32,000 nt of DNA from Candidatus Lokiarchaeum ossiferum. GTDB taxonomy: Archaea; Asgardarchaeota; Lokiarchaeia; Sigyniarchaeales; Promethearchaeaceae. The notes beneath the pieces are model-generated. The model was not told the origin of the DNA. It did no database searches and saw only the letters and a program-made list of their open reading frames with translations. A program made the position numbers and the translations under genes. Position 1 is the first letter of the stretch. Each line of letters opens with the position of its first letter. This document shows, in pieces, positions 2,425 to 29,570 of this stretch. The stretch spans positions 240,001-272,000 of the forward strand of contig CP104013.1 in the NCBI GenBank assembly GCA_025839675.1, read 5' to 3'.

Positions 2425-2436
2425 TGCGGGATTCAT

Positions 2437-3952: not shown

Positions 3953-4075
3953 GTCAAAATTGTTCGTAATGAAAAATGGATATTTCAGATTTTCTTCCTA
4001 TGATCAAAAAATATCTTTTTTCAATTCAATTGGTAGGAAACCCTTTTATGTTTTTTTTACTTTGATTTTTTTAAA

Positions 4076-4999: not shown

Positions 5000-5316
5000 G
5001 TCTGATTTACCATATTTTTTAATATTTACTTTCTAAGTCATATAAACTTGAGATTTTTCATTCTTTCAGCAATATTGATACCCTTAAACAAATTTTGGAC
5101 ATCTCTCCTTATTGTTTCTCATGATAATAATGAAAAAACAATCATTTTTGTTTATTTGCAGATTTTTTAAGAACTAATCCATTTTTGATATTATTAAAAT
5201 GAAACAGATTGATTTCCAACAAGTAAGAAGAAAATGCAACACGTACACCTTTTGTTATTGTTTGCAAAAAATGAACCATAAATGGTTGATGAAAAAAAAA
5301 TAATCAAATTCAAGCT

Positions 5317-6231
5317 TTAGAATGCATAATAGCAATCCTTGCACAGAGGTTTACTATCCGTTATGCCACTTTGTTTAGTACCACAAATATGACATTGTTT
5401 CCCAAAAATACTACCGCGATATTTTTTATTTTTGAAGTAACATGGTTTGCACATTGGATGGGTAGGATCTAGTTCGATTTCCTCCCCACAAATGATACAA
5501 TTGCCTTGAATTTTCCGAATGTTTTTAATTTGGGTGTATTCAACATCCAAACCGTATTTCGTACGATTCCAATTCTTTATAACTTCAGCTTCATACCAGC
5601 TCCCATCTTTTAAACCCGGTGCATTAGCAATCAAGATTTTATTTTCATAACCCTCATCTGTTTCAACTTTAATCCATTTATTCCCTTTAGAGAGAACCAT
5701 GAATTTCTGTATTGAAAATTGTTCCTTGGAATTTTTCGCTAAAGTTGTTTCCTCTAGATTTTTCTTCTTTTCACTAACAGTTTTCTGTCCAGCACTCATT
5801 AAATATTTAATATGTTCCCGAACATCCAAAACTTTATCACGTTCTTCAAATAAAACTCCAATTTCATGGTTTTTTTCTGCAGAATGTTGATACATATTCA
5901 TGGACGTGACAAGTGCTGTCGTTTCGTTATAATAAACTTTAGAATGAAGATCATCAACCACATATACCCTGCATCTGTCAAGATATGGCGATAATTCATC
6001 GAGTGATTTGTTATTGCCATTTGGTTGGTTTCGAGTAATAATTGTAATTTCAATTTCATTTTTCTCATTATCATTCAAAACGTATTTCAAAGCATCGTTC
6101 AAGCGAGGCCATCCATCTAATTGAATATATGGGCTTACAATCATCAATTCTTTTCTTGCCCGTTTGATTATACTCAGAATTTCTGCTGTAACACCATCTG
6201 TTTCAGTAATTACTTTAACCATTTTTATCAA
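5317..6231 (-). CDS. phospholipase-D-family (single HKD, Nuc-like) nuclease fused to two C-terminal CxxC...CxxC zinc ribbons
   Basis: LHSKVYYNETTALVTSMNM is an H-x-K ... (T/G)S-x-N HKD-type motif, with the H codon at 5944-5946. The C-terminus carries CIICGEE...CKPC and CHICGTK...CKDC. Confidence 0.75.
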   Translation of the reverse strand: MIKMVKVITETDGVTAEILSIIKRARKELMIVSPYIQLDGWPRLNDALKYVLNDNEKNEIEITIITRNQPNGNNKSLDELSPYLDRCRVYVVDDLHSKVYYNETTALVTSMNMYQHSAEKNHEIGVLFEERDKVLDVREHIKYLMSAGQKTVSEKKKNLEETTLAKNSKEQFSIQKFMVLSKGNKWIKVETDEGYENKILIANAPGLKDGSWYEAEVIKNWNRTKYGLDVEYTQIKNIRKIQGNCIICGEEIELDPTHPMCKPCYFKNKKYRGSIFGKQCHICGTKQSGITDSKPLCKDCYYAF

Positions 6232-6466
6232 CTTTTTAGACTTAGTTCTAAATAGTAATTTATGGAAAATCTTTAAAAATTTATGCAGAATTGTTGATTA
6301 CAGAAAAGATATATAGATTTCACAAATGAAATCTATTTTCATTAAGTACAAAAAAACTTCTAACTTATTAACTACATATATACAACGTAGAGTACTTCAT
6401 TAGTAAAGCATTGGAAATACGCGGAATCATCTCAAACACAATATTTGAGTACTCAATCCGCAAGGT

Positions 6467-7381
6467 TTACGTTCTTTTCCAAAAATTATTAAAATATTGT
6501 TCTTGACAAAATTGTTCAAGCTTGTTTCCATTTACATAAATTCTTTCAACAGATTGCATTAATAGTAATTCAACAGGTAAAAATGTCAGCTCATTGCAAG
6601 ATAACGTTAATAATTTGAGCTTTTTCAAACTTAACAATTGTTCAGGGAGACTTTTAAGTTGATTCATTCCTAAATTCAGTTCTTCCAATTTTTTAAGATT
6701 ATTAATATCTTTAGAAAGTTCAGAAATCTGATTATCTAAAAGGTAAAGTATTCTAAGAGAAGAGATTGAAAATAAGATGTCGGGAATTTTGGTAATTTTA
6801 TTTGTTCTTAGATATAAACTCCGAAGTTTGGTTAAATTTCTGATACTTGAAGGGATTTCCTCTAATCCACATCGATATAGGCTTAAATGAAGAATGTATC
6901 CATTAGAAGATTTAAAACCAATGCTATTGTATCGAAGAACAGTTTTTTTAGGAATTGGGAATCCAAGTATTGATTCAATCTTATCTAAGAATTCTATTTG
7001 ACTTGCATACAAGGGTTCTCCATAATAATTATGGATAGGTTCATTATTCGAGTTTTTAATTTTTGCTTTCCGCTTCGCAAAAGTCTTCTCCTTTTCTTTT
7101 GCTAGATCTATTATTATTTTTTTTCTGTTTTGCTTGATCTGATATATTTCTGATGGATTTAACAAATTATCAGCGTTTTGATATTCTTCAAATAATATCC
7201 ACTTATTATTCTTGGAGATTAATAAGTATTCAACGCCAATCATTTCATGAAAGATAGAAAAACGATTCCATTTAAGTGAAACTGTCCTACATTTACACTT
7301 TTTCGACTTTTTATGAAAAATTTCCCCACATAATAGACATTGATAGGTATATTTTTTTAGATTTTGTGAATATTGTTCCAT
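6467..7381 (-). CDS. zinc-ribbon + leucine-rich-repeat (LRR) protein
   Basis: N-terminal CLLCGEIF...KCKC. The C-terminus holds about six LRR units of 22-23 aa (LTKLRSLYLRTNKITKIP, LSSLRILYLLDNQISEL, LKKLEELNLGMNQLKSLP, LKKLKLLTLSCNELTFLP). Confidence 0.8.
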   Translation of the reverse strand: MEQYSQNLKKYTYQCLLCGEIFHKKSKKCKCRTVSLKWNRFSIFHEMIGVEYLLISKNNKWILFEEYQNADNLLNPSEIYQIKQNRKKIIIDLAKEKEKTFAKRKAKIKNSNNEPIHNYYGEPLYASQIEFLDKIESILGFPIPKKTVLRYNSIGFKSSNGYILHLSLYRCGLEEIPSSIRNLTKLRSLYLRTNKITKIPDILFSISSLRILYLLDNQISELSKDINNLKKLEELNLGMNQLKSLPEQLLSLKKLKLLTLSCNELTFLPVELLLMQSVERIYVNGNKLEQFCQEQYFNNFWKRT

Positions 7382-7454
7382 CTCAAATCCTTTTTTCTTA
7401 TCTTTAGTAAAATTAGGTTGGAATAATGATAATAAAAACTTTTACTCGAATGTA

Positions 7455-7511
7455 TGAGTAATACTACTCATCAACAGAACAATAATTGGATTTATTAAGT
7501 AATATTACTTA
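7455..7511. promoter_or_regulatory. two related palindromes (TGAGTAatacTACTCA 7455-7470; perfect 16-bp TAAGTAATATTACTTA 7496-7511) upstream of the HTH gene; candidate operators
   Basis: Read directly. The centres are 41 bp apart and the second ends 21 bp upstream of ATG 7532. Confidence 0.4.
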
Positions 7512-7531
7512 TTATTAATTAGTGAAATAAT

Positions 7532-7849
7532 ATGGTTAAAATGACACAACAACAGAAAGATGATCGTGATACCAAGATCAAAGAGTTGATTAAAGATGGA
7601 CTAACAGTAGCACAAATTGTTAAGGAAGTCGGGTGTTCTAATTCCACTGTTTTAGATTTTACTCAACCCAAACATAATATTGGTTCAAGTAATATTACTC
7701 ATAACGAATTAACACCTGAGATTAAAAGTTCTATCGGTGTTATGATTGAGCTATTTAAAAACTCATTAGATATTCCAGAGTTCGTTGATTCAATTGATTT
7801 GAACATTAGAAAGGCAATTTCATCATTGGAGGCAATTATTGATGAGTGA
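7532..7849 (+). CDS. small helix-turn-helix DNA-binding protein
   Basis: GLTVAQIVKEVGCSNSTVLDF is a typical HTH segment near the N-terminus. Palindromes lie immediately upstream. Confidence 0.6.
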   Translation: MVKMTQQQKDDRDTKIKELIKDGLTVAQIVKEVGCSNSTVLDFTQPKHNIGSSNITHNELTPEIKSSIGVMIELFKNSLDIPEFVDSIDLNIRKAISSLEAIIDE

Positions 7850-8213
7850 AACCTTTGAGGAAGCTTTTCAGCGAAAAATAAAAGAAAAAGGAGTTATTAA
7901 AAGTAAAGATATTGCACTTGAAGAGAAAAATAAACCTTCTTTCAAAGATCCCACAAAATCCAATAAGAACCCAATTTTGAAAGAAAAAATTAAGAAGGAT
8001 AAACAACCCAATAAGAAAAGAAACATGTCTCCAAAGGCAAAAGAATCAGAAACTAAAGCGAAATTTGAGCCTACAATTTCATGGTATAGAGGTCAAGCGG
8101 AACTTTTAGCTGGAGGTTATGTGAAGGGAACTCGAGGTTCAAAAATTGATGCAATTGATGTTATGATTATTGAATTGGAGAAACGTAAATTACAATTAAT
8201 TTCTAAAATGTAA
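7842..8213 (+). CDS. lysine-rich hypothetical protein, translationally coupled to the HTH gene
   Basis: ATG 7842 overlaps the upstream stop (ATGAGTGA). GGAGG at 7828-7832 lies 9 nt upstream. Confidence 0.55.
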   Translation: MSETFEEAFQRKIKEKGVIKSKDIALEEKNKPSFKDPTKSNKNPILKEKIKKDKQPNKKRNMSPKAKESETKAKFEPTISWYRGQAELLAGGYVKGTRGSKIDAIDVMIIELEKRKLQLISKM

Positions 8214-8442
8214 TTTTTTGATTCTTTTTTGAAAATATTAACGGAAGACTGCTCAATTCCGCATTTTCATGCACAAGATAGTCATCTGTGAGTCTAAAGG
8301 TTGTATCTGTTTCATCTATCTCAAAAAATACCTTCAATTCCAATTTCTGAAGAAATTTTCTTATTTCAGGTGATTGAATTTTTGTAATGTCTACAGGGAG
8401 CTTGAGTAACATAGTTAAATTAAGTGAAAAAAAGAGTATCAA
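8203..8442 (-). CDS. small hypothetical protein (possible true start at the internal ATG, about 69 aa)
   Basis: It lies 40 nt downstream of, and co-oriented with, 8482-9441. TTG start. It overlaps the 3' end of the plus-strand ORF by 11 nt. Confidence 0.3.
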   Translation of the reverse strand: MILFFSLNLTMLLKLPVDITKIQSPEIRKFLQKLELKVFFEIDETDTTFRLTDDYLVHENAELSSLPLIFSKKNQKITF

Positions 8443-8481
8443 AGGGGGTATGATCGGGGAAGTATCAATGAAATCTGGATT

Positions 8482-17500: not shown

Positions 17501-20115
17501 TTCAGTATGGAGATATAATTGGGTATTTTCTCCAGCATATTGAAGAGGATAAGAAGGGGAATCATTCCTTATTATGGATAAAAGGGACATCGGGCAATAT
17601 TGGAAGAATAAGTGAAACATATTTGGAATTAGTCGGATTGTATTTACTTGAATCAGAAATATTTGAAATGGTCGATTCTCCTGCCCAAGGAAGGCTATTA
17701 AGGACCTTTACCGCCGAATCTCGAAGTTATGAACCCTTTTTTACCTTAGCTGGAAAAAAACTGGAAGAACCATTAACTAAAATTCCTTTTGTATATAACA
17801 ATAAGAAATCGCATAATAAACCTGAAATGTTGTATTTAGATTATCTCATTCCAACACAATTAATTCAGTTTTGTAATCCGGAACAAGGAAGTATTTTAGC
17901 AGATAGAAGAGGAAGAGTAAAAAGGAAGATATTACAAGAATGGCATATTTTAGATGAGAATAGTCAGATCACGCTTATTACCAAAGTGCTTATCAATGCC
18001 TTACGCTCATTTTTCTTTGTCCAGCTAGGAAAATCCAATCCAGACCTAATTTCTGAGTTTGAAGTCCGTTTTTCAATATCGGAAATGATTTATTTATCTC
18101 AGCATCACAAGAAAAATTATTCTAATATTCCGGTGCTGTCTAAAATTCTTACGAGTCCTAAACAATTAGCTTTTCTAATAAGGAAATTTGCAAAAAAAAC
18201 GAAAGAAGGGAATATGGTTATCGTGGAGGACTCGGGGTTATCAGAAATTGCAGATAAAGTTGAAATTTGGCAGTATGCAAATCCCGGAATTATTGATTAC
18301 TCTGATAATTTACCAAAATGTAAATTTGAAACAATTATTAAAGAGATCTATCACCCTCTCCAACATCCATTTACTTTGATAGATGGTGAGATTGGATGTG
18401 GAAAAAGTGTTTTACTCGCTCAAATCGCAATAAACCAGTTAGAGCAAAATAAAACAATTTACATATTGCAACCCTTTGTCGAATTGTCCCGAGTTCCCGA
18501 CATTAAACCAAATTCTTTAATCATCATTGATAATATCGACGCTTTATCAGATCATCAATTACAGATAATTAATTTATGGTATAATATCAAGGAGATACAA
18601 GTTATTGCGACTATTAGATCAGAAAAGATGAAAGCCTTTCGTAATCGATTTAATATCTTAAATCCATTACCAAATTCACTTAGTAGATGGCATTCTGTCA
18701 AATTCTCCAATTGGACGATTAAAGAATTAATTGAACTAATTGAACATGAAAAAAATTACTGGGGAATTGCATCGGGAATTGAAAATTATAGGGAAGAAAT
18801 ATTGGAGATTTCAAATGGAAATTGCACATTTTCAACCGGAATATTGAAAAACCTCCGATTTAAAGGAAAAAAAGTGCTGTTACGAAGCGATCTTTTTGAA
18901 CCTGTTGAGGCAATGGGTTCAAAAATTTTGCGATTATTAGCCGAACTTTACCTCGATGAAAATAGTCAAATAATCTCCGAAAATGCTACCAATGAATTAA
19001 AATTGATATGGATAATTCTTATGGCATATCGAAAAATTCCAATTGAACAAATAGAACCAAAAATAAATTATTATCGAGGTTTACCAGATATATTATTTAA
19101 AAGTCTTTTAGATAATTTGCACGTAGACTTGCAAAGTGATGATTCTTACTTATCGAGTATTTTTCCCGCAATTTTGAGAGGGAATTCCATAAAAATTCCC
19201 CCAAATATTGCTTGGAAGCAATATATTTTAGATATCAAAAACGGTGGATTAATTTTATTTATGAGGAATAAACAAGGGAATTCTTCTTTTTTTGAATTGG
19301 AAAGATGGGCTCAAATTCTAAAGATCTTTCAGAATATTCAAGAAGAACAAGGAGAAAGTATTTTTCAACTCTTTAAGAATATTATTCAAGAAATTGTGAA
19401 TTCAAATGATTTCGATTTTCATGAATTGATTCATATTATCTGTTTTACAATTGGATTTTATTACGATAGAGGGTTTTATGAATATTTTCCTTCAGAATTT
19501 TGGGAAAGCAAGAATTATCAAGAGATGTTCAAAAGTTTCAACAATGGAGAAATGATTGAATTTATTCAAATCATCCTTTCTACTATTTTGTATTCTTATA
19601 TGCCAATTTCTTTAGAAATTCCACAGGAAGTTATATTTAAACCGCTAAAAATTGTTGAAAGCATAATTAGTTATGCAGAAACAGATTTGAAAATTCTTGT
19701 TCCTAATTTAATTAAAACACAACTATATGGCTTTCAAGGAAAATTCCATTTCTATTTTCAAAATATAGAAGAAAGCCTAACTTCTTTCTTAAAGGTGGAA
19801 TCCCTCCCACAATTTTCAGAGATGGATTTAGAGATTCAAATGGAAATCTTAGAAGAAATTATATCGATTTATCTTATTCAGAAGAAACCTGAAATAATGG
19901 AAGCTTGGTTGACTAAAATAAAAGATGTTGATCAGAAAATGTGTAACAACCTTAATCGCTTTCCAAAAATACTTCAACCACATGTACATGAATTACATGC
20001 ATCCTATCTATTCATTTTATCACGATATTATGAAATAAGAGGTGATACTGAGAAGAAAGATGAACTCTTCATGGAAGCAAATATATATAAAAAGGAATGG
20101 AATATTGGAAAATAA
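14560..20115 (+). CDS. giant TPR-repeat / unknown middle region / P-loop STAND-like NTPase / helical C-terminal protein (1851 aa; ATG 14569 may be the true start)
   Basis: Many canonical 34-aa TPR units occur in the first ~800 aa (e.g. AEYNTLGLIYLYARKFENAIQSFKTSIEYNP, KFQLGNAYESRRDYQRAIKIYTEILQIDP). Walker A GEIGCGKS is encoded at 18385-18408 and Walker B LIIIDNID at 18517-18540. Confidence 0.85.
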   Translation: MKIMSHKTYTKLEAMLKELVQLITSENFTYETNYYAQILFIHEISVSLKNQSSLGKSIEGKIKSILDYLLQNKIEEIPQDLLDEEKIQILKLGINKFLNINNFNAADKGLQLLGNIKSENKFAIIYQTRLLCNQNKFKDARVKLNQIQIPNKKTEKYLFFSTKFNILVQKSNIEEWKNFEKQIKEYIPDDVSLARMTSIQIYKLEGEFEKAISLQQEVINELKAHEDTHSFVYSAEYNTLGLIYLYARKFENAIQSFKTSIEYNPTSLNLKFQLGNAYESRRDYQRAIKIYTEILQIDPSNPKVVTTLANMISRDGNPDNAIKMYRKLMDNKSYVEQNGYFFKNLALAYFRKGDFKNAEINHNIAIEKDPNNHQFYYHRGTFYLHSMKYNKSKHDLLKAIELFPSHPDYWNQIGNVYLNQNLVEDATTAFQECVKLDPIHFSALFNLGLVHYFQKKPSIALKFLQKAEKSCPSQFLVYFYQGVIHLKNIQYKKASKCFLIALKLEKPTKLMQERFEKFELDILCGLYHCHFELQQNEEALTIGQTLMKKTEKNIESNEIFVSNIESVQDPTSFLLIIKRNYAVLLERIGKYEEAIEILSDHRPSNSFLFDENHKERCFQLTSIMYLHKKEYINARNAIWHALSNRESSLSYFICGFIEFKLKTQDSQKNFKVSVQILYESQVNLFLYFENLKILFEFCEKFHFTSSFKKISAFQPSFAQLTQKTSSIEQFNIIPYQLWYKIIMFSICIDSTQEFMIEKLEELNERSQSKFSEWLDYWEMLLHLGIKYKKTQKIKRVLKKMFALNPNYKIRSKLWNNEIIGKQEVLKLKLSEKIKQQKQVDLTEERYVFKFRDRGFWHKGDYYIILDTGETGSEFREGPNNYYIKDQVDLGLSSKRMGLNTNDNINEEEKQKFQELMENLHTQVFLTDKTETNFQSNLTELFGMNNSGTMNYFLSKDDIQAIKEYNEIIKKSPEYLKQYGIIQYGDIIGYFLQHIEEDKKGNHSLLWIKGTSGNIGRISETYLELVGLYLLESEIFEMVDSPAQGRLLRTFTAESRSYEPFFTLAGKKLEEPLTKIPFVYNNKKSHNKPEMLYLDYLIPTQLIQFCNPEQGSILADRRGRVKRKILQEWHILDENSQITLITKVLINALRSFFFVQLGKSNPDLISEFEVRFSISEMIYLSQHHKKNYSNIPVLSKILTSPKQLAFLIRKFAKKTKEGNMVIVEDSGLSEIADKVEIWQYANPGIIDYSDNLPKCKFETIIKEIYHPLQHPFTLIDGEIGCGKSVLLAQIAINQLEQNKTIYILQPFVELSRVPDIKPNSLIIIDNIDALSDHQLQIINLWYNIKEIQVIATIRSEKMKAFRNRFNILNPLPNSLSRWHSVKFSNWTIKELIELIEHEKNYWGIASGIENYREEILEISNGNCTFSTGILKNLRFKGKKVLLRSDLFEPVEAMGSKILRLLAELYLDENSQIISENATNELKLIWIILMAYRKIPIEQIEPKINYYRGLPDILFKSLLDNLHVDLQSDDSYLSSIFPAILRGNSIKIPPNIAWKQYILDIKNGGLILFMRNKQGNSSFFELERWAQILKIFQNIQEEQGESIFQLFKNIIQEIVNSNDFDFHELIHIICFTIGFYYDRGFYEYFPSEFWESKNYQEMFKSFNNGEMIEFIQIILSTILYSYMPISLEIPQEVIFKPLKIVESIISYAETDLKILVPNLIKTQLYGFQGKFHFYFQNIEESLTSFLKVESLPQFSEMDLEIQMEILEEIISIYLIQKKPEIMEAWLTKIKDVDQKMCNNLNRFPKILQPHVHELHASYLFILSRYYEIRGDTEKKDELFMEANIYKKEWNIGK

Positions 20116-20130
20116 AAAAATAAGAAAATA

Positions 20131-20174
20131 GAGATATTTGGTGAACTCTAAAGAGATATTTGGCGAACTCTAAA
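20131..20174 (+). repeat. exact tandem 22-bp direct repeat x2 (GAGATATTTGG[T/C]GAACTCTAAA)
   Basis: Read directly. One mismatch between units. Located 16 bp after the stop of the giant gene. Confidence 0.9.
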
Positions 20175-20239
20175 CAATTATTTCACTTCTTTGGAGAGGA
20201 AAATATAAGAATTAGATGGTCACCAACAAAAGGTGTAGA

Positions 20240-20264
20240 CATCACAGTAACATCACAGTAACAT
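20240..20264 (+). repeat. tandem 11-bp repeat CATCACAGTAA x2 plus a partial third unit
   Basis: Read directly. About 100 bp upstream of ATG 20366. Confidence 0.85.
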
Positions 20265-20365
20265 TTTAAAATTTGAAATTATTACAAGATAGCTAAATTT
20301 AATAAGATATTTTTTCTTAAAAACATACAATCTGATAGTAATTAAATTGAGAAAGGCAAAAGAAA

Positions 20366-22408
20366 ATGTCAATTGCAAAAGGATTTTTTGATAATGAAGT
20401 TATTCAGCAAATAAAGTCAGGTAATTTAGATATTTTTAATCAATTAACAAAAGATATGGAGAAAATTGTAAATACTCAAATTAAGTTTAATAATTATAAA
20501 ATAAAAAAAATTTTTACATCTCCAAATTTGTCAGCAGGTAATCCACCTAGGATAATTAATCCTGATTGTGAATCTACAATTATTGTGGGACCAAGTGGAG
20601 CTGGAAAGACAACCTTTTTTGATAAAGTAATTCACCCAATAATTAGTTCAAATACAATTAAATCACCTATCAGAGAATACGTTAATGGTTTAAAAATAAC
20701 GTATTCAGTATCCGATAAAAAACCTCAGAAAGACAAAACTAGAGATGATTTAACATTTCAATTCACAACAACACTACCTAACGAGGTTTCTTTGATAGTT
20801 AATAATAAAAAATCAATTGAAAATAAAAAAATCTTGAAATCTCTGGGTTTGTATGACAATTATTTGAGTGCTTTTTTTTTTGTTAGTGGTCAAAACGATC
20901 ATTTACAGCTTTTCTCAAATTTTCAAGGAAATATCGCTCAATATAAGAGATTTTTTTATCACCCTACTGATTTAGAAGTTGTTAAATTATATGAAAGTAC
21001 GATAAATGAAATGTCTGAGATTTTGCAAGATAATAATTCTCGAATAAATCATATTGAAACTAGAAAAAGAAGAATTGAAGATTATATTACCAAATTGCAG
21101 AAAGAAATTATAGAATACCAGATGTTATTAGACAATAGCACAGATATAAAAATTTTAATTGATAAATTGCGAGCCAATTCAAAATTTAATGCATTGCGGG
21201 AAGAGTTAAAAGAAAATAGGAAGAAAATTGATAATATTGATGATAAAATATTGATTGAAAATCAGATTATAAAAGACAAGCAAAATAAAAAGATTTCAAG
21301 AAAATTTTCAGATGAATACCACCGATTTATTCGTGAGCAATACAATTCTTCCTTCAAGAGGTGCTTAATATGCTATGAGGAAATCAATTTCAATAAATAT
21401 CACAAAGCTTTTGAATCAGGAAGTTGCTATTTATGTAATTCAAAGTATCATGGATATGAAAAATATAATGGTACCATGTTTATTAAGGAAGAAAACAAAA
21501 CAAAAAAAATCCAAAAAGGTTTACTGCATTTTATTACTGATAAATCGAATTTACTCAAAGAAAAGGAAGAAATAATTAAAAGAATCAAAGAAAAGGAAAA
21601 ACTTACATTTTCCGATGAAGAAATACGTTTAAAAAAGATAATATCGCCATTTTACATGGAAATCACTAGGACGCATCGAAATTTTGAAGATCTTCTTAAT
21701 AATTTCGCAGATATTAAAAGTTCTAAAGAAGAAATGATTACAGGATATAAAGAAAATGTTTTTGATTATAATAAAGAAATAATCAAACTCAAAAAAATAC
21801 AAAATATTCTAAAAAAAAAATTTGAAATTATAAATGTAATATATAAAAATTTTATAGAAAAGTTAGAATTAGATATTAAAGATGTATATGAAGTATTTTG
21901 TGATAAAATATCTCAATTTTGGTCTCAGTTATCCCAGATTTCTGACAAAAAAATTCAAGAAAAAAATGGAAGACTTTATGTTGTTACAGTCTCAAAAGGG
22001 AGTCTTCTCCCCATTACAACTAAAATTACAGGTTTAGATCCAAAACAAAAAAGACTTTCTACAAACATGGTAGAAATATTAAGATATTCTATTCAATTAG
22101 CTTTTATTTATTGTTTATCTACCAAATTTCAAAAAACACCCTTTAAAGTAATATTTTTTGATGATCCAAATCAGAAATATCTCAGATCCCTTATAAATTT
22201 GTTAAACTCAACATTTGTTAATGACCTAAATTTTCAAATAATAATTTTAACACATATGGAAGAGGTCGAAACTTCATGGAAAAAAGAGGAATTCGATTTC
22301 TATGATGGAAATATGCCTATGTCAAATGATGCATGCTCATTAATAGTTAAAAATTGGAGATCTGGTGAATCAAATGATGTTAATTCTGAGGAGAATAATA
22401 AAAATTAG
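20366..22408 (+). CDS. Rad50/SMC-like ABC ATPase with a coiled-coil insertion carrying a CxxC...CxxC zinc ribbon
   Basis: Walker A GPSGAGKTT (20588-20614). Long K/E/I-rich coiled-coil-like middle. CLICYEE...CYLCNSKYH (21362-21435). Signature-like LSTNM..., Walker B VIFFDD (22148-22165) and H-loop-like IILTH near the C-terminus. Confidence 0.85.
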   Translation: MSIAKGFFDNEVIQQIKSGNLDIFNQLTKDMEKIVNTQIKFNNYKIKKIFTSPNLSAGNPPRIINPDCESTIIVGPSGAGKTTFFDKVIHPIISSNTIKSPIREYVNGLKITYSVSDKKPQKDKTRDDLTFQFTTTLPNEVSLIVNNKKSIENKKILKSLGLYDNYLSAFFFVSGQNDHLQLFSNFQGNIAQYKRFFYHPTDLEVVKLYESTINEMSEILQDNNSRINHIETRKRRIEDYITKLQKEIIEYQMLLDNSTDIKILIDKLRANSKFNALREELKENRKKIDNIDDKILIENQIIKDKQNKKISRKFSDEYHRFIREQYNSSFKRCLICYEEINFNKYHKAFESGSCYLCNSKYHGYEKYNGTMFIKEENKTKKIQKGLLHFITDKSNLLKEKEEIIKRIKEKEKLTFSDEEIRLKKIISPFYMEITRTHRNFEDLLNNFADIKSSKEEMITGYKENVFDYNKEIIKLKKIQNILKKKFEIINVIYKNFIEKLELDIKDVYEVFCDKISQFWSQLSQISDKKIQEKNGRLYVVTVSKGSLLPITTKITGLDPKQKRLSTNMVEILRYSIQLAFIYCLSTKFQKTPFKVIFFDDPNQKYLRSLINLLNSTFVNDLNFQIIILTHMEEVETSWKKEEFDFYDGNMPMSNDACSLIVKNWRSGESNDVNSEENNKN

Positions 22409-22422
22409 GAGTACTATGGAAA

Positions 22423-23001
22423 TTGAGTAAAAAAACCAGATCAATTATCAATTTAGTGTTAGATAAGTTCATTTTGAATAAATATAAGCAAAAAATAGAT
22501 GAAAAGTATTTAAAAAGTTTGTTTGTTGTATGTAAAAAACTAGAAAAGGAATTTTCAATATTCAATTTAGAAAAATTTATTTTGGGAATAAAATTTGAAG
22601 AAAAATTATATAATGAATCCATATTTAAAACTGCAAAAAAAACAATTCCAAAAAAAATTCTTACTGAAGATGCAGCTGTTGGATTGGCTTTCTGTTTTTT
22701 ATTCAAAATTTGTCCAGATATAACTGAAATAGAATGTTATCAGGCAGAAGGAGAAGGATATGATTACAGGTATCGAATCGGAGATCATTTTTACAAAATT
22801 GAAATGAGTGGGACAGATACAGAGATTTCTAAATATTTTACTGATCGAATTTATGCAAAAAGACAAAAATTTAAAGATGGTACATATTGGGAAGATAACT
22901 TCGAAAAAGAAGAAATTTTTATCGTTGATTTTCATTTCGACAGATATACTTATTGGGATTCAAAAGTACATGATAATATAAAGCAAGGTAGATTAAATTG
23001 A
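22423..23001 (+). CDS. hypothetical protein, second gene of the ATPase operon; weak PD-(D/E)xK-like pattern
   Basis: TTG start 11 nt after AGGAG (22407-22411), with no in-frame ATG nearby. EDAAVGL...GEGYDYRY...YKIEMSG could be an E...D...E-x-(S) degenerate nuclease core (speculative). Confidence 0.55.
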   Translation: MSKKTRSIINLVLDKFILNKYKQKIDEKYLKSLFVVCKKLEKEFSIFNLEKFILGIKFEEKLYNESIFKTAKKTIPKKILTEDAAVGLAFCFLFKICPDITEIECYQAEGEGYDYRYRIGDHFYKIEMSGTDTEISKYFTDRIYAKRQKFKDGTYWEDNFEKEEIFIVDFHFDRYTYWDSKVHDNIKQGRLN

Positions 23002-23813
23002 TTGGATTATATTCTGAAGATGTTGAAAAACATATCAATATTATTAAAAAAGAAAAAACTAGTCTCATCATCAATCTTAGGAACAATAGTGATGAAGAAA
23101 AAGATGATAATTATAGAAGAATAATTAGATTAGAACTTGAAATTGCAGATATGGAGATAATACGTGGATTTTATAATAAAGCGATAAGCAATATAAAAAA
23201 TGGCTTGATATTTTTAGACAAACTTCAAAACTCACATCATTTTATTGAAAAAATTTGTTTAAGAGGTCTAATTGAAGAAAAATTTTCATCAGAAAATAGA
23301 GAATTGTTTTTTAAATTTTTAATTAAAGATAAGGATCCTATTGACGAGGATTTAGAACAAATTTCTGATTCATTAAGAAATACTTTTGCTTATATCATTG
23401 ATGAATTTGTTGAAAATAAATTTAAAGCGAATCTCCAGAACCTAAATAAATCTCATTTCTATTTATATCAAAACACTCCTTTTAGGTACTTAGATTTGAT
23501 TCCAAAACCAATTATTAAAATTGGCTCATATCCGCTCTATTCGGAGCATTTTAATACATTTTTCTCGGTTTATTCTGAGAATTGGGATTTCTTCTCAATA
23601 AAAGATAATCTTGTACATCCAAGCCTTGAATACAATAGACTTCTTATATTCGCGAATTCATTTAAACGTCGAATTGCTGAGCAAAATGTTAAAATTTTGA
23701 CATTTTATGAAAACCTTCTTAAAAGTTTTTCAAATTGGAAAACTGATGAAATTAAAGAATGGGAAAAAAAGACACAAATACTAAATCATTTTGGTAGAGA
23801 TGCAAAGATCTAA
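22998..23813 (+). CDS. hypothetical alpha-helical protein, third gene of the ATPase operon
   Basis: TTG 22998 overlaps the upstream TGA (TTGA), suggesting translational coupling. No family recognised. Confidence 0.6.
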   Translation: MIGLYSEDVEKHINIIKKEKTSLIINLRNNSDEEKDDNYRRIIRLELEIADMEIIRGFYNKAISNIKNGLIFLDKLQNSHHFIEKICLRGLIEEKFSSENRELFFKFLIKDKDPIDEDLEQISDSLRNTFAYIIDEFVENKFKANLQNLNKSHFYLYQNTPFRYLDLIPKPIIKIGSYPLYSEHFNTFFSVYSENWDFFSIKDNLVHPSLEYNRLLIFANSFKRRIAEQNVKILTFYENLLKSFSNWKTDEIKEWEKKTQILNHFGRDAKI

Positions 23814-24270
23814 TGAGGATAATTATTATATTAAAAGAAAGGTCCGATTCATAATTGAATAAAGCAGAACCTGAGTCAATAAAATGAGATTTTTGATTTT
23901 CTTGGAAATAACTCAGTTTTTTGCGAATATTTATTAAAAATTTTCAAAATTTCCAATATTTCGAATATTTATCCATTTGGGTATATCTCCATTGAAAAAT
24001 GGAATCAATTTTTGCTCGTAAATCCTTTGAAGAAGGACATTTCTTCTCAGAGAGAGAAGCGAAGGCACGGTAAACATACAGCCATCCAAAAAGACAATAT
24101 ATGACTTTGCTCAAGTATCAATTGAAGTAATTTTGAGTGATAATTCAATTCAAAGAAACTAACAACGATTAAATTTATGAATAGAAAGTAAAAGAAAAAT
24201 TAACAAAAAAGCAATTCTAATAGATAAAACCAGTCAATTTCTCAAGAAAGTCCAAATTTTCTACATTATT

Positions 24271-24294
24271 ATGTAGGGATGTAGGGATGTAGAA
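24271..24294 (+). repeat. tandem octamer ATGTAGGG x2 plus a degenerate third unit ATGTAGAA, preceded by the inverted CTACAT (24261-24266)
   Basis: Read directly. About 90 bp upstream of ATG 24384. Confidence 0.7.
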
Positions 24295-24383
24295 GATGAT
24301 GGCTTAAGATAGGGAGTTGAATTATATAACTTGGCATACTTTTCTAGGTCTTTTTAAAATATTGTAACTAAAATATTCCTAAT

Positions 24384-24746
24384 ATGAATATAAAAACAGA
24401 TAACGATTTTTTTGATTTCATGCAGGAAGAAGTAATAAATCTTTTAAAAAAAAATAAAAGTGGATTAACAATAGAGCAAATATTGATTGCTATTAAGAAA
24501 AAAGGATATAATCTTCTTGCAGTTGACGATATTTGGCAAATTAGATATGGTATTTCTTTAATCAAAGAATTAGAAATACAAATTGGTGAAGATTTGAAAA
24601 ATGAGTTAGATAAACTATCCGAAAATCCATATACAAACCTATCTTTCGAAGAAAGTGTAGAAAGACTTAAATCTATTAAAGAACAGTATGTAAAAGAATT
24701 GTTTCTTTGGAACAAAGCAATGGGTCTCCCAATTAAGCGAGAGTGA
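24384..24746 (+). CDS. hypothetical small protein, possibly winged-helix-like
   Basis: Preferred over the fully overlapping antisense ORF 24368-24715, whose S/F/L/I-rich composition is typical of the antisense of K/E/N-rich coding sequence. Confidence 0.5.
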   Translation: MNIKTDNDFFDFMQEEVINLLKKNKSGLTIEQILIAIKKKGYNLLAVDDIWQIRYGISLIKELEIQIGEDLKNELDKLSENPYTNLSFEESVERLKSIKEQYVKELFLWNKAMGLPIKRE

Positions 24747-24856
24747 AGATTAAATCGGAGATCACAAAAATCTTAATGCATATCCTTTAAATCGAAAGTG
24801 ACATATTTTACAAATCTTTAGGATAATTATAAAACATTAGTTAAAGATAAAACCAT

Positions 24857-24937
24857 GGTTTAACGATGGTTAAACCAATTCTTGATATATTTTTTATAAT
24901 TTCTTGAGGGTATATAAGGGTTTAACCATCGTTAAAT
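24857..24937 (+). repeat. 18-bp perfect inverted repeat (24859-24876 TTTAACGATGGTTAAACC / 24919-24936 GGTTTAACCATCGTTAAA) with attC-like outer cores GTTTAAC (24858-24864) and GTTAAAT (24931-24937)
   Basis: Read directly. Each arm is itself a small palindrome (GGTTTAAC-gatg-GTTAAACC). The AACCATGGTT palindrome at 24851-24860 abuts it. Confidence 0.85.
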
Positions 24938-24941
24938 TTTA

Positions 24942-24967
24942 AGACCCACTCCCCCTCAGAGCCGCCA
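24942..24967 (+). repeat. copy B of the intergenic repeat core: AGACCCACTCCCCCTCAGAGCCGCCA
   Basis: Read directly. It is G+C-rich in an AT-rich spacer. Confidence 0.9.
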
Positions 24968-25168
24968 TTTTATTATTGGGAGAAATCTCTTGGTGAATAA
25001 CTAATTGATCATTATGATCAATTTTGCTTTTCCTTTATTGTTGGTCTGAAAAATGTGTAGAAAAGATTTACGTAGTTTTGATTAAAAAATATTTTTGGCA
25101 ATGGCAACTGCTAATTCGATTAATTTGAAGAAAATGAAGAAAAAAAAACTCTAACTTGATATTGTGAT

Positions 25169-25663
25169 TTATATAAATTTTTGCTGAATATCAAAATCAA
25201 GTAAAAAGGATTTGAGTTCATTATATACACCTGCTTGATTTAATTCTGAGATTTTAAAAAAAATAAAAGCATTCTTTTGAATATAAAGTAAAATCCAATC
25301 CTTGTATATAAGATAATGTAATATATTCTTGATAGAAATTTCCGTTTTTAAATCATTTGTCTGTGCAATGATACAACCATCAGCTAAAAACTCTATTTCT
25401 TCAGAAGCACCAAAATTTTTATTTGTTTTCGCAGCTCGCACCCAAGTACCAATATAAATCTGTTTGATAAATAGTAGGTATAATCCTATAACACTACAAA
25501 ATATCCCTTCTAAATTTTTTTTCAAGAAAATGAAATTAATTAATGCGATAAATAGCCCTAATAAACCCATTACAGGTAATATTTTCAGATATCTAATAGA
25601 CTTGTAATGGATGGCGTAAGCTTTTTTCCAGTCTATATCTGTAGATTGAATTGTAAAAGTCAT
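25169..25663 (-). CDS. small membrane protein with two predicted transmembrane helices
   Basis: Hydrophobic stretches ILPVMGLLGLFIALINFIFL and IFCSVIGLYLLFIKQIYIG. Flanked by repeat copies B and C. Confidence 0.65.
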   Translation of the reverse strand: MTFTIQSTDIDWKKAYAIHYKSIRYLKILPVMGLLGLFIALINFIFLKKNLEGIFCSVIGLYLLFIKQIYIGTWVRAAKTNKNFGASEEIEFLADGCIIAQTNDLKTEISIKNILHYLIYKDWILLYIQKNAFIFFKISELNQAGVYNELKSFLLDFDIQQKFI

Positions 25664-25943
25664 TTTTTTTATCTAATCCTTTAATATATCTAATTGGAAA
25701 GGGTATATTAAAAAAAAAGTTTTGGTTATTTGGATTCGATTCGAAACGGTAAAAATTACACAAGTTGAGGTTTCAATTTTTTTGATAATAGTCTTACAAT
25801 TAGGTAGCATCCCCATTGGAACAGCCAATATTAAGGCTCTAAGCTTTAAATACTAGTATCCTATGATGTGCGATTCTAAAATATGGAAAGGAGTTCTTCT
25901 TTTTCTTTTCTAATAGTAATAGAGGGCTCACCTTTGTATGATG

Positions 25944-25960
25944 TCCCCTCAGAGCCGCCA
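25944..25960 (+). repeat. copy C of the repeat core: TCCCCTCAGAGCCGCCA
   Basis: Read directly. Located in the divergent spacer between 25663 and 26075. Confidence 0.9.
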
Positions 25961-26074
25961 CTATCATAATTAAATAACATTTTATGAAGGAATGAACTTT
26001 GATAAAAAAAAAGGACTTTTTTTGATACCAAAACCCAAAAAAAATAAAGGGATAAAATAAGTAAATTACTTTAT

Positions 26075-26650
26075 ATGGATAATATTCTCCAGAATGCAGA
26101 CATTCTACATAAAGAAGCTAGTGATTTGTTATCCTCAATGGGACTTTTAAAATTACTAACTCAATATGGTAATTCCCATCTCACAGGCAGTTATTATTAT
26201 AATTTAATGACTTGGCGAGATATTGACATATGCGTGGAAATTGATTCTGTCGATAAAACAAAGATATTTGAGGTAGGGAGAGCAATTGCTCTGTTTCCTT
26301 ACACCTCTACTATGTATTTTCGAAACGAATTTGTTTTAAACACGGTTGGTAACCCCAAAGGAATCTTTTGGTGTGTGGAGATTTTACTCCCGAGTTCACA
26401 GTTATGGAAAATAGATATTTTATTTGCAAATAAAGAAGAAATTCACAAAATCCTTAAAAATGGAGAGGAAATTAAACAAAAAGTTACTCCAAGTATTCGA
26501 AGATCTATATTGGAAATAAAGACCCCCCTATCTAAAAGGCTAGAATATCGCAGGAGTTATCGATCAGTAGATATATATCATGCGGTGATTCATGACGGGA
26601 TACGAACGGTAGGTGAGTGGGATATATGGTGGAAAGCAAAAAAAAGATAA
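26075..26650 (+). CDS. polymerase-beta-fold nucleotidyltransferase (MNT/ANT-like)
   Basis: LTGSYYYNLMTWRDIDICVE matches the G-S-x(9-13)-D-h-D-h motif. A third acidic residue lies in WKIDILF. Confidence 0.65.
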   Translation: MDNILQNADILHKEASDLLSSMGLLKLLTQYGNSHLTGSYYYNLMTWRDIDICVEIDSVDKTKIFEVGRAIALFPYTSTMYFRNEFVLNTVGNPKGIFWCVEILLPSSQLWKIDILFANKEEIHKILKNGEEIKQKVTPSIRRSILEIKTPLSKRLEYRRSYRSVDIYHAVIHDGIRTVGEWDIWWKAKKR

Positions 26651-26670
26651 GATTGAAATAGTAATAATTT

Positions 26671-26737
26671 GACCCACTTCCCATCAGTACTCTCAAGTCT
26701 AAACCAAAAAAAAGACAATTCCCCCTCAGAGCCACCA
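26671..26737 (+). repeat. copy D: degenerate unit GACCCACTTCCCATCAG (26671-26687) followed by a good unit AGACAATTCCCCCTCAGAGCCACCA (26713-26737)
   Basis: Read directly. It begins 21 bp after the stop at 26650. Confidence 0.85.
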
Positions 26738-26853
26738 AAAACCGAATCAAAACAATTATGGCAATGTTTCAAATTATTTTTTATAGCAAAAAGAATTCCT
26801 TTTCAAAAAATCATAACAATTTTATGTATTAAATTCATTTAAATATATGAAAT

Positions 26854-28527
26854 ATGCTTCAAAAAAGAACAACGGCAATAATCAAGAATATTTCTGTTCT
26901 TTACATAATTTTAGGAATTGCTGGAACATCTATATTTATTATAGTAAACATAGTTCTTTTAACTCTTAAACTTAAATCTCCTGGTGAAATCGCTCAACAA
27001 TTTAGGTATGATTATTTTTTTATAGTTGAATTGAATTTTATGTTCCTATTATCTTCTATATTTGATATTATTGTCGGAATTTCAATTTTAAGAAGGGAAA
27101 ACATAGGAAAACAATTTTTAATCATTCATAATTTAGTGAAGATTATTTTAATTTTCTTTCAAGGTTTTTGGGAATCTGTTTATAAATTCACTGATTTAAA
27201 CACTTTTACAAGTAAAACAATATTGAATAGTGTATTGAGAGCCATTTTTTTGTTGTTCAATTTGATTTTAATTTTGTATTTCCAATTTTCCAGATCTGTT
27301 AGAGAATATTTTTCCAAAATTGAAAACAACTCCCAAAATTCTTTAAAATCTGAAGGAGTCTCAAGAGAGGGAAGGAAAAGAATAATAATAACTTATTTAA
27401 TAGTTAGTTGTTCTTTTTTTTTTTTAGGGAGTATAACTTATTCGACATCTGCAAGTAAAGACAAATTTGAAAGATCTAATTATGGTACTTTATTTGAAAC
27501 TGATTTAATAAATCCAACTATATCTATCGTAGATGAAAATTTGACAGAAGTTTTTGATTATAATCTCTGTATTCTAAGAAATCAAGCTTTAATAGGGACA
27601 ATTAGGGATCATTCCTTAAACCAGACATCAGTTATCCATTTTCAGCTTAATGAAAATATAAACCGATTAGAATATGTGAAAATCTTGAACATTAGTTATG
27701 ATATATATCAGGAGCATTTACCAACTATTATAGGATATAATCAATCAAGTTACTTCCTCATAAATTACAAGAGTAATAGTAATTATATCGTGGCTGTGAA
27801 CTCATCTGGAATTCAAATGAACCGACAGATATCTATTCCTACAGAATTCGAAGGTTATCCCTTGGATACTCAAAATTATAAATTCTACTATTTGGACATT
27901 CAAAAACACTTCTATAATATGATTATTCAAACAAGACCTATTTATGGTGAAATCGGCAAAGCTTTTTACATACGTTATTTTTCTTCTAACTTAACAATAT
28001 CCTCAATACAACCAATTATAACTGCGAGGAACTATCACTTAGATGAATCAAATACTTTATGGGCAATATGCAATAGAGATCCCATTGGAGGAGAACATAC
28101 TAGTTCTGTTTCAAAACTATCACCAATTAAAAACTCTTTCTATGGCTATAGTTATTCAAATGGAATATTAGGAAGAATTAATAGAACAATTCAACAGAAA
28201 TCTTCATACGTTGCCCTATTTGCTGGAGATACGAGGTTACATTATAGGTTAGAAATGGGATTGTTTGTTCATAATGATGAAATTATTATTCCATATTATG
28301 ACCAGAAAATAAATAATGGAAGTTCATTTACTTTATTTGAAGGAATAGCAAAATATGGGATTAATGAAAACCCATCTTTAAGCAGAGAAATGAAAGGATT
28401 CAGTCAAATTCAGATAATACAAGGATGTGCATTTCTTTTTTTCACAATTTCTAAAATTCCTGTTGTTCGTGAAAAACTGAAATATGTATTTTACAAATTG
28501 AAGCAAGAGACTAATCTCAATCTATAA
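26854..28527 (+). CDS. multi-pass membrane protein (about five N-terminal TM helices) with a large non-cytoplasmic domain of unknown function
   Basis: Five hydrophobic segments occur in the first ~200 aa. The remainder is N/S/Y/I-rich with no recognised family. Confidence 0.7.
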   Translation: MLQKRTTAIIKNISVLYIILGIAGTSIFIIVNIVLLTLKLKSPGEIAQQFRYDYFFIVELNFMFLLSSIFDIIVGISILRRENIGKQFLIIHNLVKIILIFFQGFWESVYKFTDLNTFTSKTILNSVLRAIFLLFNLILILYFQFSRSVREYFSKIENNSQNSLKSEGVSREGRKRIIITYLIVSCSFFFLGSITYSTSASKDKFERSNYGTLFETDLINPTISIVDENLTEVFDYNLCILRNQALIGTIRDHSLNQTSVIHFQLNENINRLEYVKILNISYDIYQEHLPTIIGYNQSSYFLINYKSNSNYIVAVNSSGIQMNRQISIPTEFEGYPLDTQNYKFYYLDIQKHFYNMIIQTRPIYGEIGKAFYIRYFSSNLTISSIQPIITARNYHLDESNTLWAICNRDPIGGEHTSSVSKLSPIKNSFYGYSYSNGILGRINRTIQQKSSYVALFAGDTRLHYRLEMGLFVHNDEIIIPYYDQKINNGSSFTLFEGIAKYGINENPSLSREMKGFSQIQIIQGCAFLFFTISKIPVVREKLKYVFYKLKQETNLNL

Positions 28528-28568
28528 AAGTAATAGCTAGTTTTAATTTCTATATTGACTCGATGACT

Positions 28569-28590
28569 AACGGTTTTGCTTTCAGACTTA
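28569..28590 (+). repeat. possible relic (copy F) of the repeat's upstream part: AACGGTTTTGCTTTCAGACTTA versus copy A ATCGTTTTACTTTCAGACCAAC
   Basis: Partial similarity only. The CCTCAGAGCCGCC core is missing. Confidence 0.3.
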
Positions 28591-28658
28591 TTCGGATAAA
28601 AACGAAATAAGAAATCAAAATAGGGATACTTTAAAAATGAATAAGTGGAGGACTTCGA

Positions 28659-29447
28659 TTGAATAAAAATAGTGCACTTTTTTGGTTACCAAGGATTCAA
28701 GAATTTAAGGATATTCTCATACCTCTTACTAAAATAATCGAAATTGACGAATCAGATGGATTATTACTTCTCAGTGGGATGGACTCTACTTTCAAGGAAA
28801 TATATGAAAAGAAAATTGAACAAGCATTAGAATCATTTAAGTTTCCTATTTTCATTAAAACCGATGATGTAGCGGGAAAACATGATTGGAAAGATACGTG
28901 CTACGTTGAACATAAAGAAGATCTCTATAATCACATAAAAAAACTAATCTACTATGCAAAAAAGTCGAGAGTTGAGTTTCATGCCATACTATTACGAGAG
29001 TTTCTTCATCTCGAATCTCCCTTTAATTTTTTTGATGGAAATATGCCTGTTGCAAAGGAAAGAAGATATTTTATTAAAGATGGACACGTAATATGTCATC
29101 ATCCTTATTGGGATGAAGAGGTATTTTTTGATACTTTTAATCAAGATGATAAAAGATCTTCTATTTTTTTGGAAAACAGGAGCAATAAGAAAGAGAAATT
29201 TCAAAGAAAATACCCCGAGGAGGTAAGAGATAGAATAATTAGACAACTTCGAGAAATTAACACAGAATCTGAAGATGAAATCTTGAAATTATCCAAAATT
29301 GCAGCCAAGGTATCTACACTTATAGATGGTCTATGGTCTGTAGACTTTGCATGTGATAAATCAGGAAAGTGGTATCTTCTTGATATGGCATTAGCTAAAC
29401 ATTCTTGGCATCCTACAACTTGTATGAAATTAGATAAATTATTATAA
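28659..29447 (+). CDS. hypothetical protein, possibly ATP-grasp fold (R2K-clade-like)
   Basis: TTG start 6 nt after GGAGGA (28647-28652). PIFIKTDDVAGKH..., ERRYFIKDGHVI and WSVDFACDKSGKWYLLDMA resemble ATP-grasp strand motifs (memory only). Confidence 0.5.
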   Translation: MNKNSALFWLPRIQEFKDILIPLTKIIEIDESDGLLLLSGMDSTFKEIYEKKIEQALESFKFPIFIKTDDVAGKHDWKDTCYVEHKEDLYNHIKKLIYYAKKSRVEFHAILLREFLHLESPFNFFDGNMPVAKERRYFIKDGHVICHHPYWDEEVFFDTFNQDDKRSSIFLENRSNKKEKFQRKYPEEVRDRIIRQLREINTESEDEILKLSKIAAKVSTLIDGLWSVDFACDKSGKWYLLDMALAKHSWHPTTCMKLDKLL

Positions 29448-29550
29448 AAATCCAATAATAAACATGGAATAATATATTCTAATCCTAATTCCTTGAGCAT
29501 CTTCTTACTAATTATTAAAAAATGTGCGACATTGTCGGACTTAAAGGTGG

Positions 29551-29570
29551 ATTCCCCCTCAGAGCCGTCA
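29551..29570 (+). repeat. copy E of the repeat core: ATTCCCCCTCAGAGCCGTCA
   Basis: Read directly. Located in the convergent spacer between 29447 and 29597. Confidence 0.9.

Follow-up and report, generated by a model that had tools for sequence, protein, structure and literature searches.

Serial integration at tRNA genes is well documented in bacteria and archaea and explains the partial tRNAs in islands of Prochlorococcus. In these tycheposon islands, a tyrosine recombinase, a primase/helicase-type replication module, and cargo genes sit at the 3′ end of a tRNA gene, newcomers displace older inserts, partial tRNAs are scattered along the island, and the content is strain-specific. Here, we describe a locus of like architecture in Candidatus Lokiarchaeum ossiferum B35. 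Five co-oriented short repeats in a window of 32,000 nucleotides (nt; contig CP104013.1, positions 240,001 to 272,000) are copies of the 3′ end of a tRNA-Sec(UCA) gene and very probably represent att-site scars of successive integrations at that gene. The likeness to the tycheposons is one of architecture only: the island resides in an Asgard archaeon and at tRNA-Sec, its integrase resembles Xer only distantly, antiviral genes make up most of its cargo, and the remnants did not reveal any fragmented integrases.

The same tRNA species is a hotspot in Enterobacteria, where the selC islands and phages (LEE, PAI-I of Escherichia coli 536, SHI-2, and phage phiR73) have direct repeats of the tRNA 3′ end and an integrase beside the tRNA. 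They differ from the locus described here in their bacterial P4-type integrases, the bacterial 8/5 fold of their tRNA-Sec, and their unrelated cargo; the likeness is, judged by analogy, convergent use of the same target. Among archaeal elements, PYG1 of Pyrococcus yayanosii and its kind also have a non-suicidal tyrosine integrase and a core in the 3′ part of a tRNA, and they are bordered by one complete and one partial tRNA copy, whereas at least five partial copies stand in tandem in L. ossiferum. Accretion of integrative and conjugative elements (ICEs) and cis-mobilizable elements (CIMEs) in streptococci leaves integrase-less, att-bounded segments beside an integrase-bearing element at the 3′ end of a tRNA or other gene; unlike in these, there are no conjugation genes here.

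The identity of the repeated motif was established by scanning the pattern TCCCCCTCAGAGCCRYCA in one genome per prokaryotic species, 185,579 genomes in all. The scan returned 38 stretches, 22 of which have a G+C content of 48 to 73% and are single matches in unrelated taxa; these are taken as chance matches. The 16 low-G+C stretches came only from Promethearchaeum syntrophicum MK-D1, two metagenome-assembled genomes (MAGs) of Promethearchaeum sp., and one uncultured archaeal MAG, and in 4 of the 16 the motif is the exact end of a complete 93-nt tRNA-SeC(UCA) gene as predicted by ARAGORN. The corresponding gene of Ca. L. ossiferum B36 scores as tRNA-Sec in Rfam (57.6 bits versus a gathering score of 47). 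In the Rfam alignment, the motif begins with the last base of the T-loop and comprises the 3′ strand of the T-stem (CCCC), the 9-nt 3′ strand of the acceptor stem (CTCAGAGCC), and then G plus CCA, matching the tRNA-Sec genes of both L. ossiferum B36 and P. syntrophicum. The repeated motif is the 3′-terminal 17 to 21 nt of a tRNA-Sec(UCA) gene. The first-pass annotation had read some of the copies as a tRNA acceptor strand followed by discriminator and CCA, the core of an att site; this was right as to the tRNA 3′ end, but the acceptor strand is CTCAGAGCC and not CAGAGCC, because the acceptor stem of tRNA-Sec has 9 bp. In the lokiarchaeial tRNA-Sec genes of five contigs (L010, L011, L016, L039, and L080; L numbers denote sequences of relatives throughout), the 3′ CCA is encoded in the DNA in all cases. 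An AAAAT-like sequence follows the CCA in several genomes and remnants, and the conserved part of the att core may thus run past the tRNA by a few bases.

In the AT-rich window (24 to 33% G+C), the 16-mer ACTCCCCCTCAGAGCC was found with at most three mismatches at 12291, 24948, 25941, 26718, and 29551, always on the plus strand, compared to 0.02 matches expected from dinucleotide-preserving shuffles. The invariant 12-mer block CCCCTCAGAGCC, which is intact in four of the five copies, occurs with at most two mismatches at 12295, 24952, 25945, 26722, and 29555 (0.21 expected) and not at all on the minus strand of the window. Repeat finding recovered the same family independently, so that the earlier claim of five main, plus-strand-only copies beyond chance stands. 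They agree with the 21-nt tRNA-Sec end (GATTCCCCCTCAGAGCCGCCA) at 16 to 20 positions (Table 1). Copies 1 and 2 have a 46-nt unit in common (85% identity, 12263-12308 versus 24920-24965), whereas repeat finding revealed no relatedness from one intervening segment to another. No copy follows copy 5 in the 48 kb examined. A degenerate unit near 26671 and a relic near 28569, which had been counted with the family, are not significant alone (E = 3.2 and E = 19), and a third weak candidate at 25807-25827 is mismatched at 7 of 21 positions. That each spacer between consecutive genes carries one copy holds almost throughout, except that the spacer between the gene for a 557-amino-acid (aa) protein and the ATP-grasp gene (28528-28658) has only the nonsignificant relic. 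No tRNA genes were found inside the window, nor did any Rfam family match there.

The position of the copies became clear from a 48.3-kb composite, built from the window and Logan contigs of run SRR22273277 that were obtained by exact-protein look-ups; it is given in window coordinates, with negative numbers left of the window. The strain of the window is B35, as seen from proteins 100% identical to NEF87_000231 and NEF87_000232. The composite reaches the 3′ end of tRNA-Sec, whose last 40 nt agree fully with the B36 gene. The five remnants are all downstream of tRNA-Sec and in its orientation, 23.9 to 41.2 kb from its 3′ end, and this geometry is as expected of attR-type scars. The composite island measures about 41 kb in B35, and the window represents its distal three quarters. 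An intact gene for a tyrosine integrase, NEF87_000194, lies 1.7 to 2.7 kb from tRNA-Sec (PF00589, E = 8e-9, 35.9 bits versus a cutoff of 27.1; motifs RVGG...HLFR...Y). The earlier statement that the window has no integrase is correct (no Pfam match) but incomplete, since this gene precedes the window by about 9 kb. The closest solved structure is that of XerA (PDB 5hxy, E = 7.6e-6); the score on the NCBIfam model XerA_Arch (NF040815) is 65.9 bits, far under the 220-bit cutoff, and therefore, NEF87_000194 is not an orthologue of archaeal XerA. Its sequence rather suggests a distantly Xer-like tyrosine recombinase.

A truncated, 231-aa paralogue of the integrase with 63% identity is encoded on another Logan contig (L082, SRR22273278_567, 10001-10696) in a defence-rich locus with a HpaII-type restriction-modification system and AAA_15/21 plus OLD-TOPRIM genes. 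No tRNA-Sec core was found up to 10 kb from it; it probably belongs to a decayed element at another site or in another strain.

Closer inspection of the DNA next to the cores revealed what we predict to be arm-type sites. The sequence directly after the CCA of tRNA-Sec, i.e., at attL, is CAAAAGTTTAACTATGGTTAAACCTTTGAAGGTTAAACGATAGTTTAACGATGGTTTAAAC. An 18-bp palindrome, GTT[TA]AAC-N4-GTT[TA]AAC, occurs three times in the 48 kb and always beside a core: two are in the first 60 nt after tRNA-Sec, and the third is 77 nt upstream of copy 2, in a region predicted to fold into an 18-bp stem (z = -3.6). The heptamer GTT[TA]AAC is likewise concentrated near cores, with 8 of 11 occurrences no more than about 100 nt away. 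The same arm motifs follow tRNA-Sec in B36. Copy 1 together with its arm is recovered with E = 3.4e-13 by the long-unit profile, and copy 2 has the same 18-nt core as attL (TCCCCCTCAGAGCCGCCA). By their sequence, the palindromes are predicted arm-type sites around an att core that would link the attL of the resident integrase to copies 1 and 2, and copy 2 is the best candidate for the attR of the current element. The arms upstream of copies 3 to 5 differ from the arm of copies 1 and 2. Arms similar to that of copy 5 (CGACATTGTCGGACTTAA) precede remnants in a lokiarchaeial MAG (L038) and in a metagenome contig (L054); this recurrence indicates a second element family on the same tRNA.

The island varies among strains and species. 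B36 (average nucleotide identity to B35, 97.2%) has the same layout at its tRNA-Sec locus, comprising an aldo-keto reductase, tRNA-Sec, an Mrr-like gene, an integrase, and a DUF5906 replicase. Its integrase is 75% identical to that of B35 (DNA, about 77% over 2.1 kb), and the stretch of tRNA plus arm is 90.8% identical; beyond these two, no further similarity was detected. The genes on either side of copy 5, encoding the ATP-grasp protein (left) and an Rce1-like protein (right), have no orthologues in B36, where the next-best matches reach 46% and 41%. Exact-protein look-ups of the nucleotidyltransferase-like and PadR proteins returned only B35 contigs and none from B36. A published comparison of the two strains (a preprint) reports viperin in B35 and none in B36, and the viperin gene therefore appears to be cargo of the island.

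In Promethearchaeum, the loci examined (L028 plus L016, L068, L074, L034, and L039) show insertion polymorphisms downstream of tRNA-Sec; the inserted DNA spans about 8 kb, in which remnants enclose modules of 1.1 and 3.9 kb. On contig L068, backbone sequence lies 44 nt after tRNA-Sec; in MAG CSMAG_2442 (L028 plus L016, JAUWOE010000006.1), the same backbone lies 8 kb downstream of tRNA-Sec, with two remnants in between, and contig L074 has an extra 1.1-kb module that separates tRNA-Sec from what is its downstream sequence in CSMAG_2442. Some of the relatives' junctions (L074 and L028) keep only GCCA or no core at all, and thus, secondary deletions or rearrangements do occur. A comparison of the genes in the window with those at the Promethearchaeum loci revealed LRR/TPR similarity only. 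The strain and species comparisons together point to the tRNA-Sec site as a hypervariable hotspot across the lineage. In a related MAG, binchicken_co116_149 (CAYPTZ01; L006, L010, L013, L015, L026, L038, and others), at least 13 contigs carry the motif. Many of them end about 150 to 330 nt from it, which suggests strain heterogeneity at the junctions in the sampled population.

In sum, the data favor successive integrations at the 3′ end of tRNA-Sec, with the repeats as attR-type scars, and we assign this explanation a probability of about 85%. The locus has direct repeats of the 3′ part of a tRNA, a tyrosine recombinase, arm-type repeats, and a presence/absence polymorphism, features by which tRNA-targeting islands are recognized. 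According to the first-pass annotation, a reading as recombination sites would fall without a matching tRNA, a recombinase, or strain-to-strain variation of the intervening genes; all three were found, and its proposal of att remnants of serial integration is borne out by the tRNA-Sec match, the nearby integrase, and the variation between strains. In our model, the integrase, presumably NEF87_000194, would bind the core and the arm sites and recombine attP with the 3′ end of tRNA-Sec. The element would bring a replacement 3′ end, so that tRNA-Sec remains intact, and the original end, now displaced, would border the insert on the side away from the tRNA. Each newcomer would again insert at tRNA-Sec and shift the earlier inserts outward, where they may lose the integrase and most other genes until one- or two-gene modules are left between co-oriented scars. 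Copies 3 to 5 would then mark three older remnants, and copies 1 and 2 would be attR-type junctions with the arm motif of the resident element. The attP junction expected of an excised element is the P-arm of copy 2 or copy 1, followed by the core and CAAAAGTTTAACTATGG. Since integration has left the integrase ORF (open reading frame) intact, with the core 1.7 kb away, the element is not of the "suicidal" SSV type.

Several points weigh against this model. The tRNA-Sec of B35 is visible only as its last 40 nt owing to a contig break, and no right-hand border of the island with the chromosome could be located in the 48 kb examined. The arms of the segment between copies 1 and 2 are mismatched, with GTATTAC/GTGATAC repeats on the P′ side and the GTTTAAC type on the P side, and therefore, this segment is not a simple single element; the right end of the current element is ambiguous, with copy 1 (23.9 kb) and copy 2 (36.6 kb) as the candidates. 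The density of scars, up to seven in 4.7 kb and one or two genes apart, is unusual for random decay. Neither an integrase nor a fragment of one was found in the small modules of B35 or in about 10 from relatives (for the 90 ORFs pooled near remnants, the result refers to the 25 commonest Pfam families, so that a single integrase could escape), and because of this, the decay route is assumed rather than seen. A search of IMG/VR with the core, T-loop plus core, arm plus core, and arm palindrome did not reveal an episomal attP form; the matches were due to chance or unrelated (coding sequence in L003 and L004, no core in L086 to L096).

It is imaginable that the small modules are not decayed autonomous elements at all. 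The 3′ end of tRNA-Sec might be a platform at which integrase-less modules with their own tRNA-Sec-like sites and several arm families are captured, excised, and reshuffled in trans, comparable to the mobilization of CIMEs and of integrative and mobilizable elements. Modules of 0.8 to 2.8 kb with one or two genes between well-kept cores (the 12-mer is intact in four of five), the lack of integrase remnants among about 10 modules in three lineages, and the sites with the arm motif of the resident integrase on both borders of the copy 1-to-copy 2 segment would fit such gene capture, as would the related MAG, in which upstream and downstream arm families combine differently and contigs often end at the motif, hinting at population heterogeneity. 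However, gene orientation varies, several genes are present in some modules, the single integrase found has an arm motif that is missing upstream of copies 3 to 5, and no circular or relocated copy of a module was found. Furthermore, the nearest kin of the ATP-grasp protein are in virus-like contigs, as would fit the leftover of a provirus, and tandem accretion followed by decay already accounts for such arrays in the Prochlorococcus islands. We therefore consider capture in trans unlikely; if true, it would make tRNA-Sec a docking site for genuine gene capture in Lokiarchaeia. A spread of tRNA fragments by segmental duplication, by tRNA-like homologous recombination, or by integrase-driven rearrangement of the pTN3 type known from Thermococcales is very improbable. 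The 46-nt unit of copies 1 and 2 could be a duplication, and the junctions of relatives that have kept only GCCA or no core could also be explained in this way, but the copies are all co-oriented downstream of the tRNA, with the integrase and arm sites at the tRNA-proximal end, the segments between them are unrelated, and there are no inverted copies.

Two other ideas of the first-pass annotation did not hold. It had likened the array to integron cassettes, and indeed, ordered small gene modules that each end in a recombination site of one orientation are reminiscent of integrons. However, the site is a fragment of a tRNA and not an attC-type hairpin (core-bearing stretches fold no better than shuffles; z = 0.38, 0.27, -0.76, and -1.13), the module genes are on both strands, and the integrase is weakly XerA-like and does not abut the start of the array, with a 525-aa gene between it and the tRNA. 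The folding test revealed an upstream inverted repeat at copy 2 only; this GTTTAAC/GTTAAAC repeat was rejected as an attC since it occurs at one copy and the same palindrome is an arm site at attL. A repetitive extragenic palindromic (REP) or miniature inverted-repeat transposable element (MITE), the other idea, can be considered together with a signal at the RNA level (terminator, processing site, or end of a small RNA). In favor of these readings, all copies are in intergenic DNA, mostly 3′ of a plus-strand ORF; against them, the core is unstructured (z = 0.38), has neither a palindrome nor terminal inverted repeats, is confined, within the 48 kb examined, to one strand and one island downstream of a single tRNA, and finds no Rfam match in the window, while the tRNA-Sec gene explains the sequence base for base. 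Copy 3 cannot be a terminator, since the genes on its two sides both start there and diverge. These readings are effectively refuted. A C/D-box small RNA or k-turn on the minus strand (CTGA) was dropped when the tRNA match explained every base. A casposon with terminal inverted repeats was likewise rejected: by eye, there was no similarity of the sequence after a core to the reverse complement of the sequence before the next core, and Cas1 was not among the Pfam matches listed.

A composite island linked to a tRNA and strewn with att scars is a known kind of feature, and it is this instance that appears to be undescribed. Selenocysteine tRNA and Asgard archaea are both absent from a 2021 review of archaeal tyrosine recombinases, and the preprint on B36 is silent about integrases and islands. 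The findings point to tRNA-Sec as an integration hotspot in Lokiarchaeia, parallel to selC in enterobacteria. They also provide a parts list of what appears to be a current element of a cultivated Asgard archaeon, with the core TCCCCCTCAGAGCCGCCA, predicted arm sites, NEF87_000194 and its B36 homologue, and a Prim-Pol/DUF5906 replicase. As Asgard archaea lack a genetic system, a native module for site-specific integration is a practical lead. Furthermore, the island cargo would explain a part of the differing antiviral repertoires of B35 and B36, such as viperin in B35 only. The features of the composite are compiled in Table 1.

Table 1. Features of the tRNA-Sec island of Ca. L. ossiferum B35 in window coordinates (TM, transmembrane)
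Feature	Position	Strand	Remarks
tRNA-Sec 3′ end (attL)	core at -11614	+	Logan contig ends within the tRNA
525-aa orphan gene	-11455..-9878	-
Tyrosine integrase NEF87_000194	-9842..-8892	-	PF00589; 316 aa, intact
165-aa ORF overlapping integrase start	just downstream of integrase region	-	B36 counterpart weakly NikA/RHH-like
Small ORFs, then 1133-aa Prim-Pol-like replicase	further right, before the window	+ and -	DUF5906/Toprim in B36
Distal part of integrase-bearing element	1..12262		Left end at -11614 to 0
Defence-type gene run	4076-11913		NucC/PD-DExK-like (DUF6602), PLD/DrmC-like, LRR, Schlafen/AlbA_2, AbiJ-N/TIR-like
350-aa orphan	within 4076-11913		PD-(D/E)xK-like motif, by eye
Predicted type-A P-arm of copy 1	12263..12289	+	Half-degenerate arm site GTTAAACCATCGTTTTAC at 12263-12280
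tRNA-Sec 3′-end remnant, copy 1	12290..12309	+	16/21; degenerate, one C>T, CCA short of one C
Integrase-less 12.6-kb segment, copy 1 to copy 2	12310..24857		Viperin, NYN RNase, STAND NTPase, LmuB-like, three unannotated genes
Viperin and Zc3h12a/NYN-type RNase	13079-14449	-	pVip directly upstream of the RNase gene
1851-aa protein	14560-20115		N-terminal TPR repeats and novel-STAND NTPase domain
LmuB-like (Lamassu SMC-type) 680-aa ATPase, then unannotated 192-aa and 271-aa genes	20366-23813		PADLOC E = 5e-19
Predicted palindromic arm-type site GTTTAACGATGGTTAAAC	24858..24875		Same 18-mer type as the two attL sites
Predicted second arm-type site GTTTAACCATCGTTAAAT	24920..24937		Inverted partner of 24858-24875
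tRNA-Sec 3′-end remnant, copy 2	24947..24967	+	19/21; 18 nt (TCCCCCTCAGAGCCGCCA) as in attL
1.0-kb module	24968..25939		One gene (25169-25663, - strand); two TM segments, weak YcxB-like match
tRNA-Sec 3′-end remnant, copy 3	25940..25960	+	19/21; in divergent 5′-5′ intergenic region
0.8-kb module	25961..26716		One orphan gene (26075-26650); nucleotidyltransferase-like only by eye (GS...DxD)
Possible decayed type-A remnant GACCCACTTCCCATCAGTACTC	26664..26692	+	E = 3.2 (long-unit profile, 26664-26687); alone not significant
tRNA-Sec 3′-end remnant, copy 4	26717..26737	+	19/21; discriminator G>A
2.8-kb module	26738..29529		557-aa orphan membrane protein and R2K-clade ATP-grasp NEF87_000231
Possible relic of type-A P-arm	28560..28591	+	E = 19 (long-unit profile, 28572-28591); alone not significant
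Predicted P-arm of second att family CATTGTCGGACTTAAAGGTG	29530..29549	+	Upstream of copy 5
tRNA-Sec 3′-end remnant, copy 5	29550..29570	+	20/21; CCA>TCA

The viperin ORF (13079-13969) was recognized by PADLOC with E = 7e-68, and the LmuB-like ATPase with the two genes that follow it may form a divergent Lamassu-type system. The proteins of the small modules did not match any PHROGs or NCBIfam family. The nearest homologues of the ATP-grasp protein (46%) are in contigs L084 and L085, which are viral-looking, with tightly packed, co-directional small genes and 36 to 42% G+C; kin in such contigs fits provirus leftovers, and neither of the two contains a tRNA-Sec core. In relatives, Pfam analysis of proteins adjacent to remnants revealed only housekeeping and accessory functions, namely, an RsmB-type methyltransferase, TetR, and an FMN reductase, as well as a SnoaL-like protein beside the tRNA; a LigA-like ORF near a remnant was recognized by eye only.

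Within the distal part of the integrase-bearing element, a small ORF after a DUF5678-like ORF (2026-2856) has a weak match to retroviral-type aspartyl proteases (PF13975, E = 3e-5, below the cutoff). An inverted repeat of 39 nt (3632-3670 and 3914-3952, 82% complementary) encloses 243 nt of noncoding DNA, and Logan contigs _4550 and _14 break exactly there; possible explanations are a MITE-like segment, an invertible one, or variation within the population. Finally, a 47-nt imperfect inverted repeat with G/C-rich centers (GGGGAAGG...CCCCCC), which may be a regulatory site, lies where the NYN/viperin operon and the STAND gene diverge (14446-14563).

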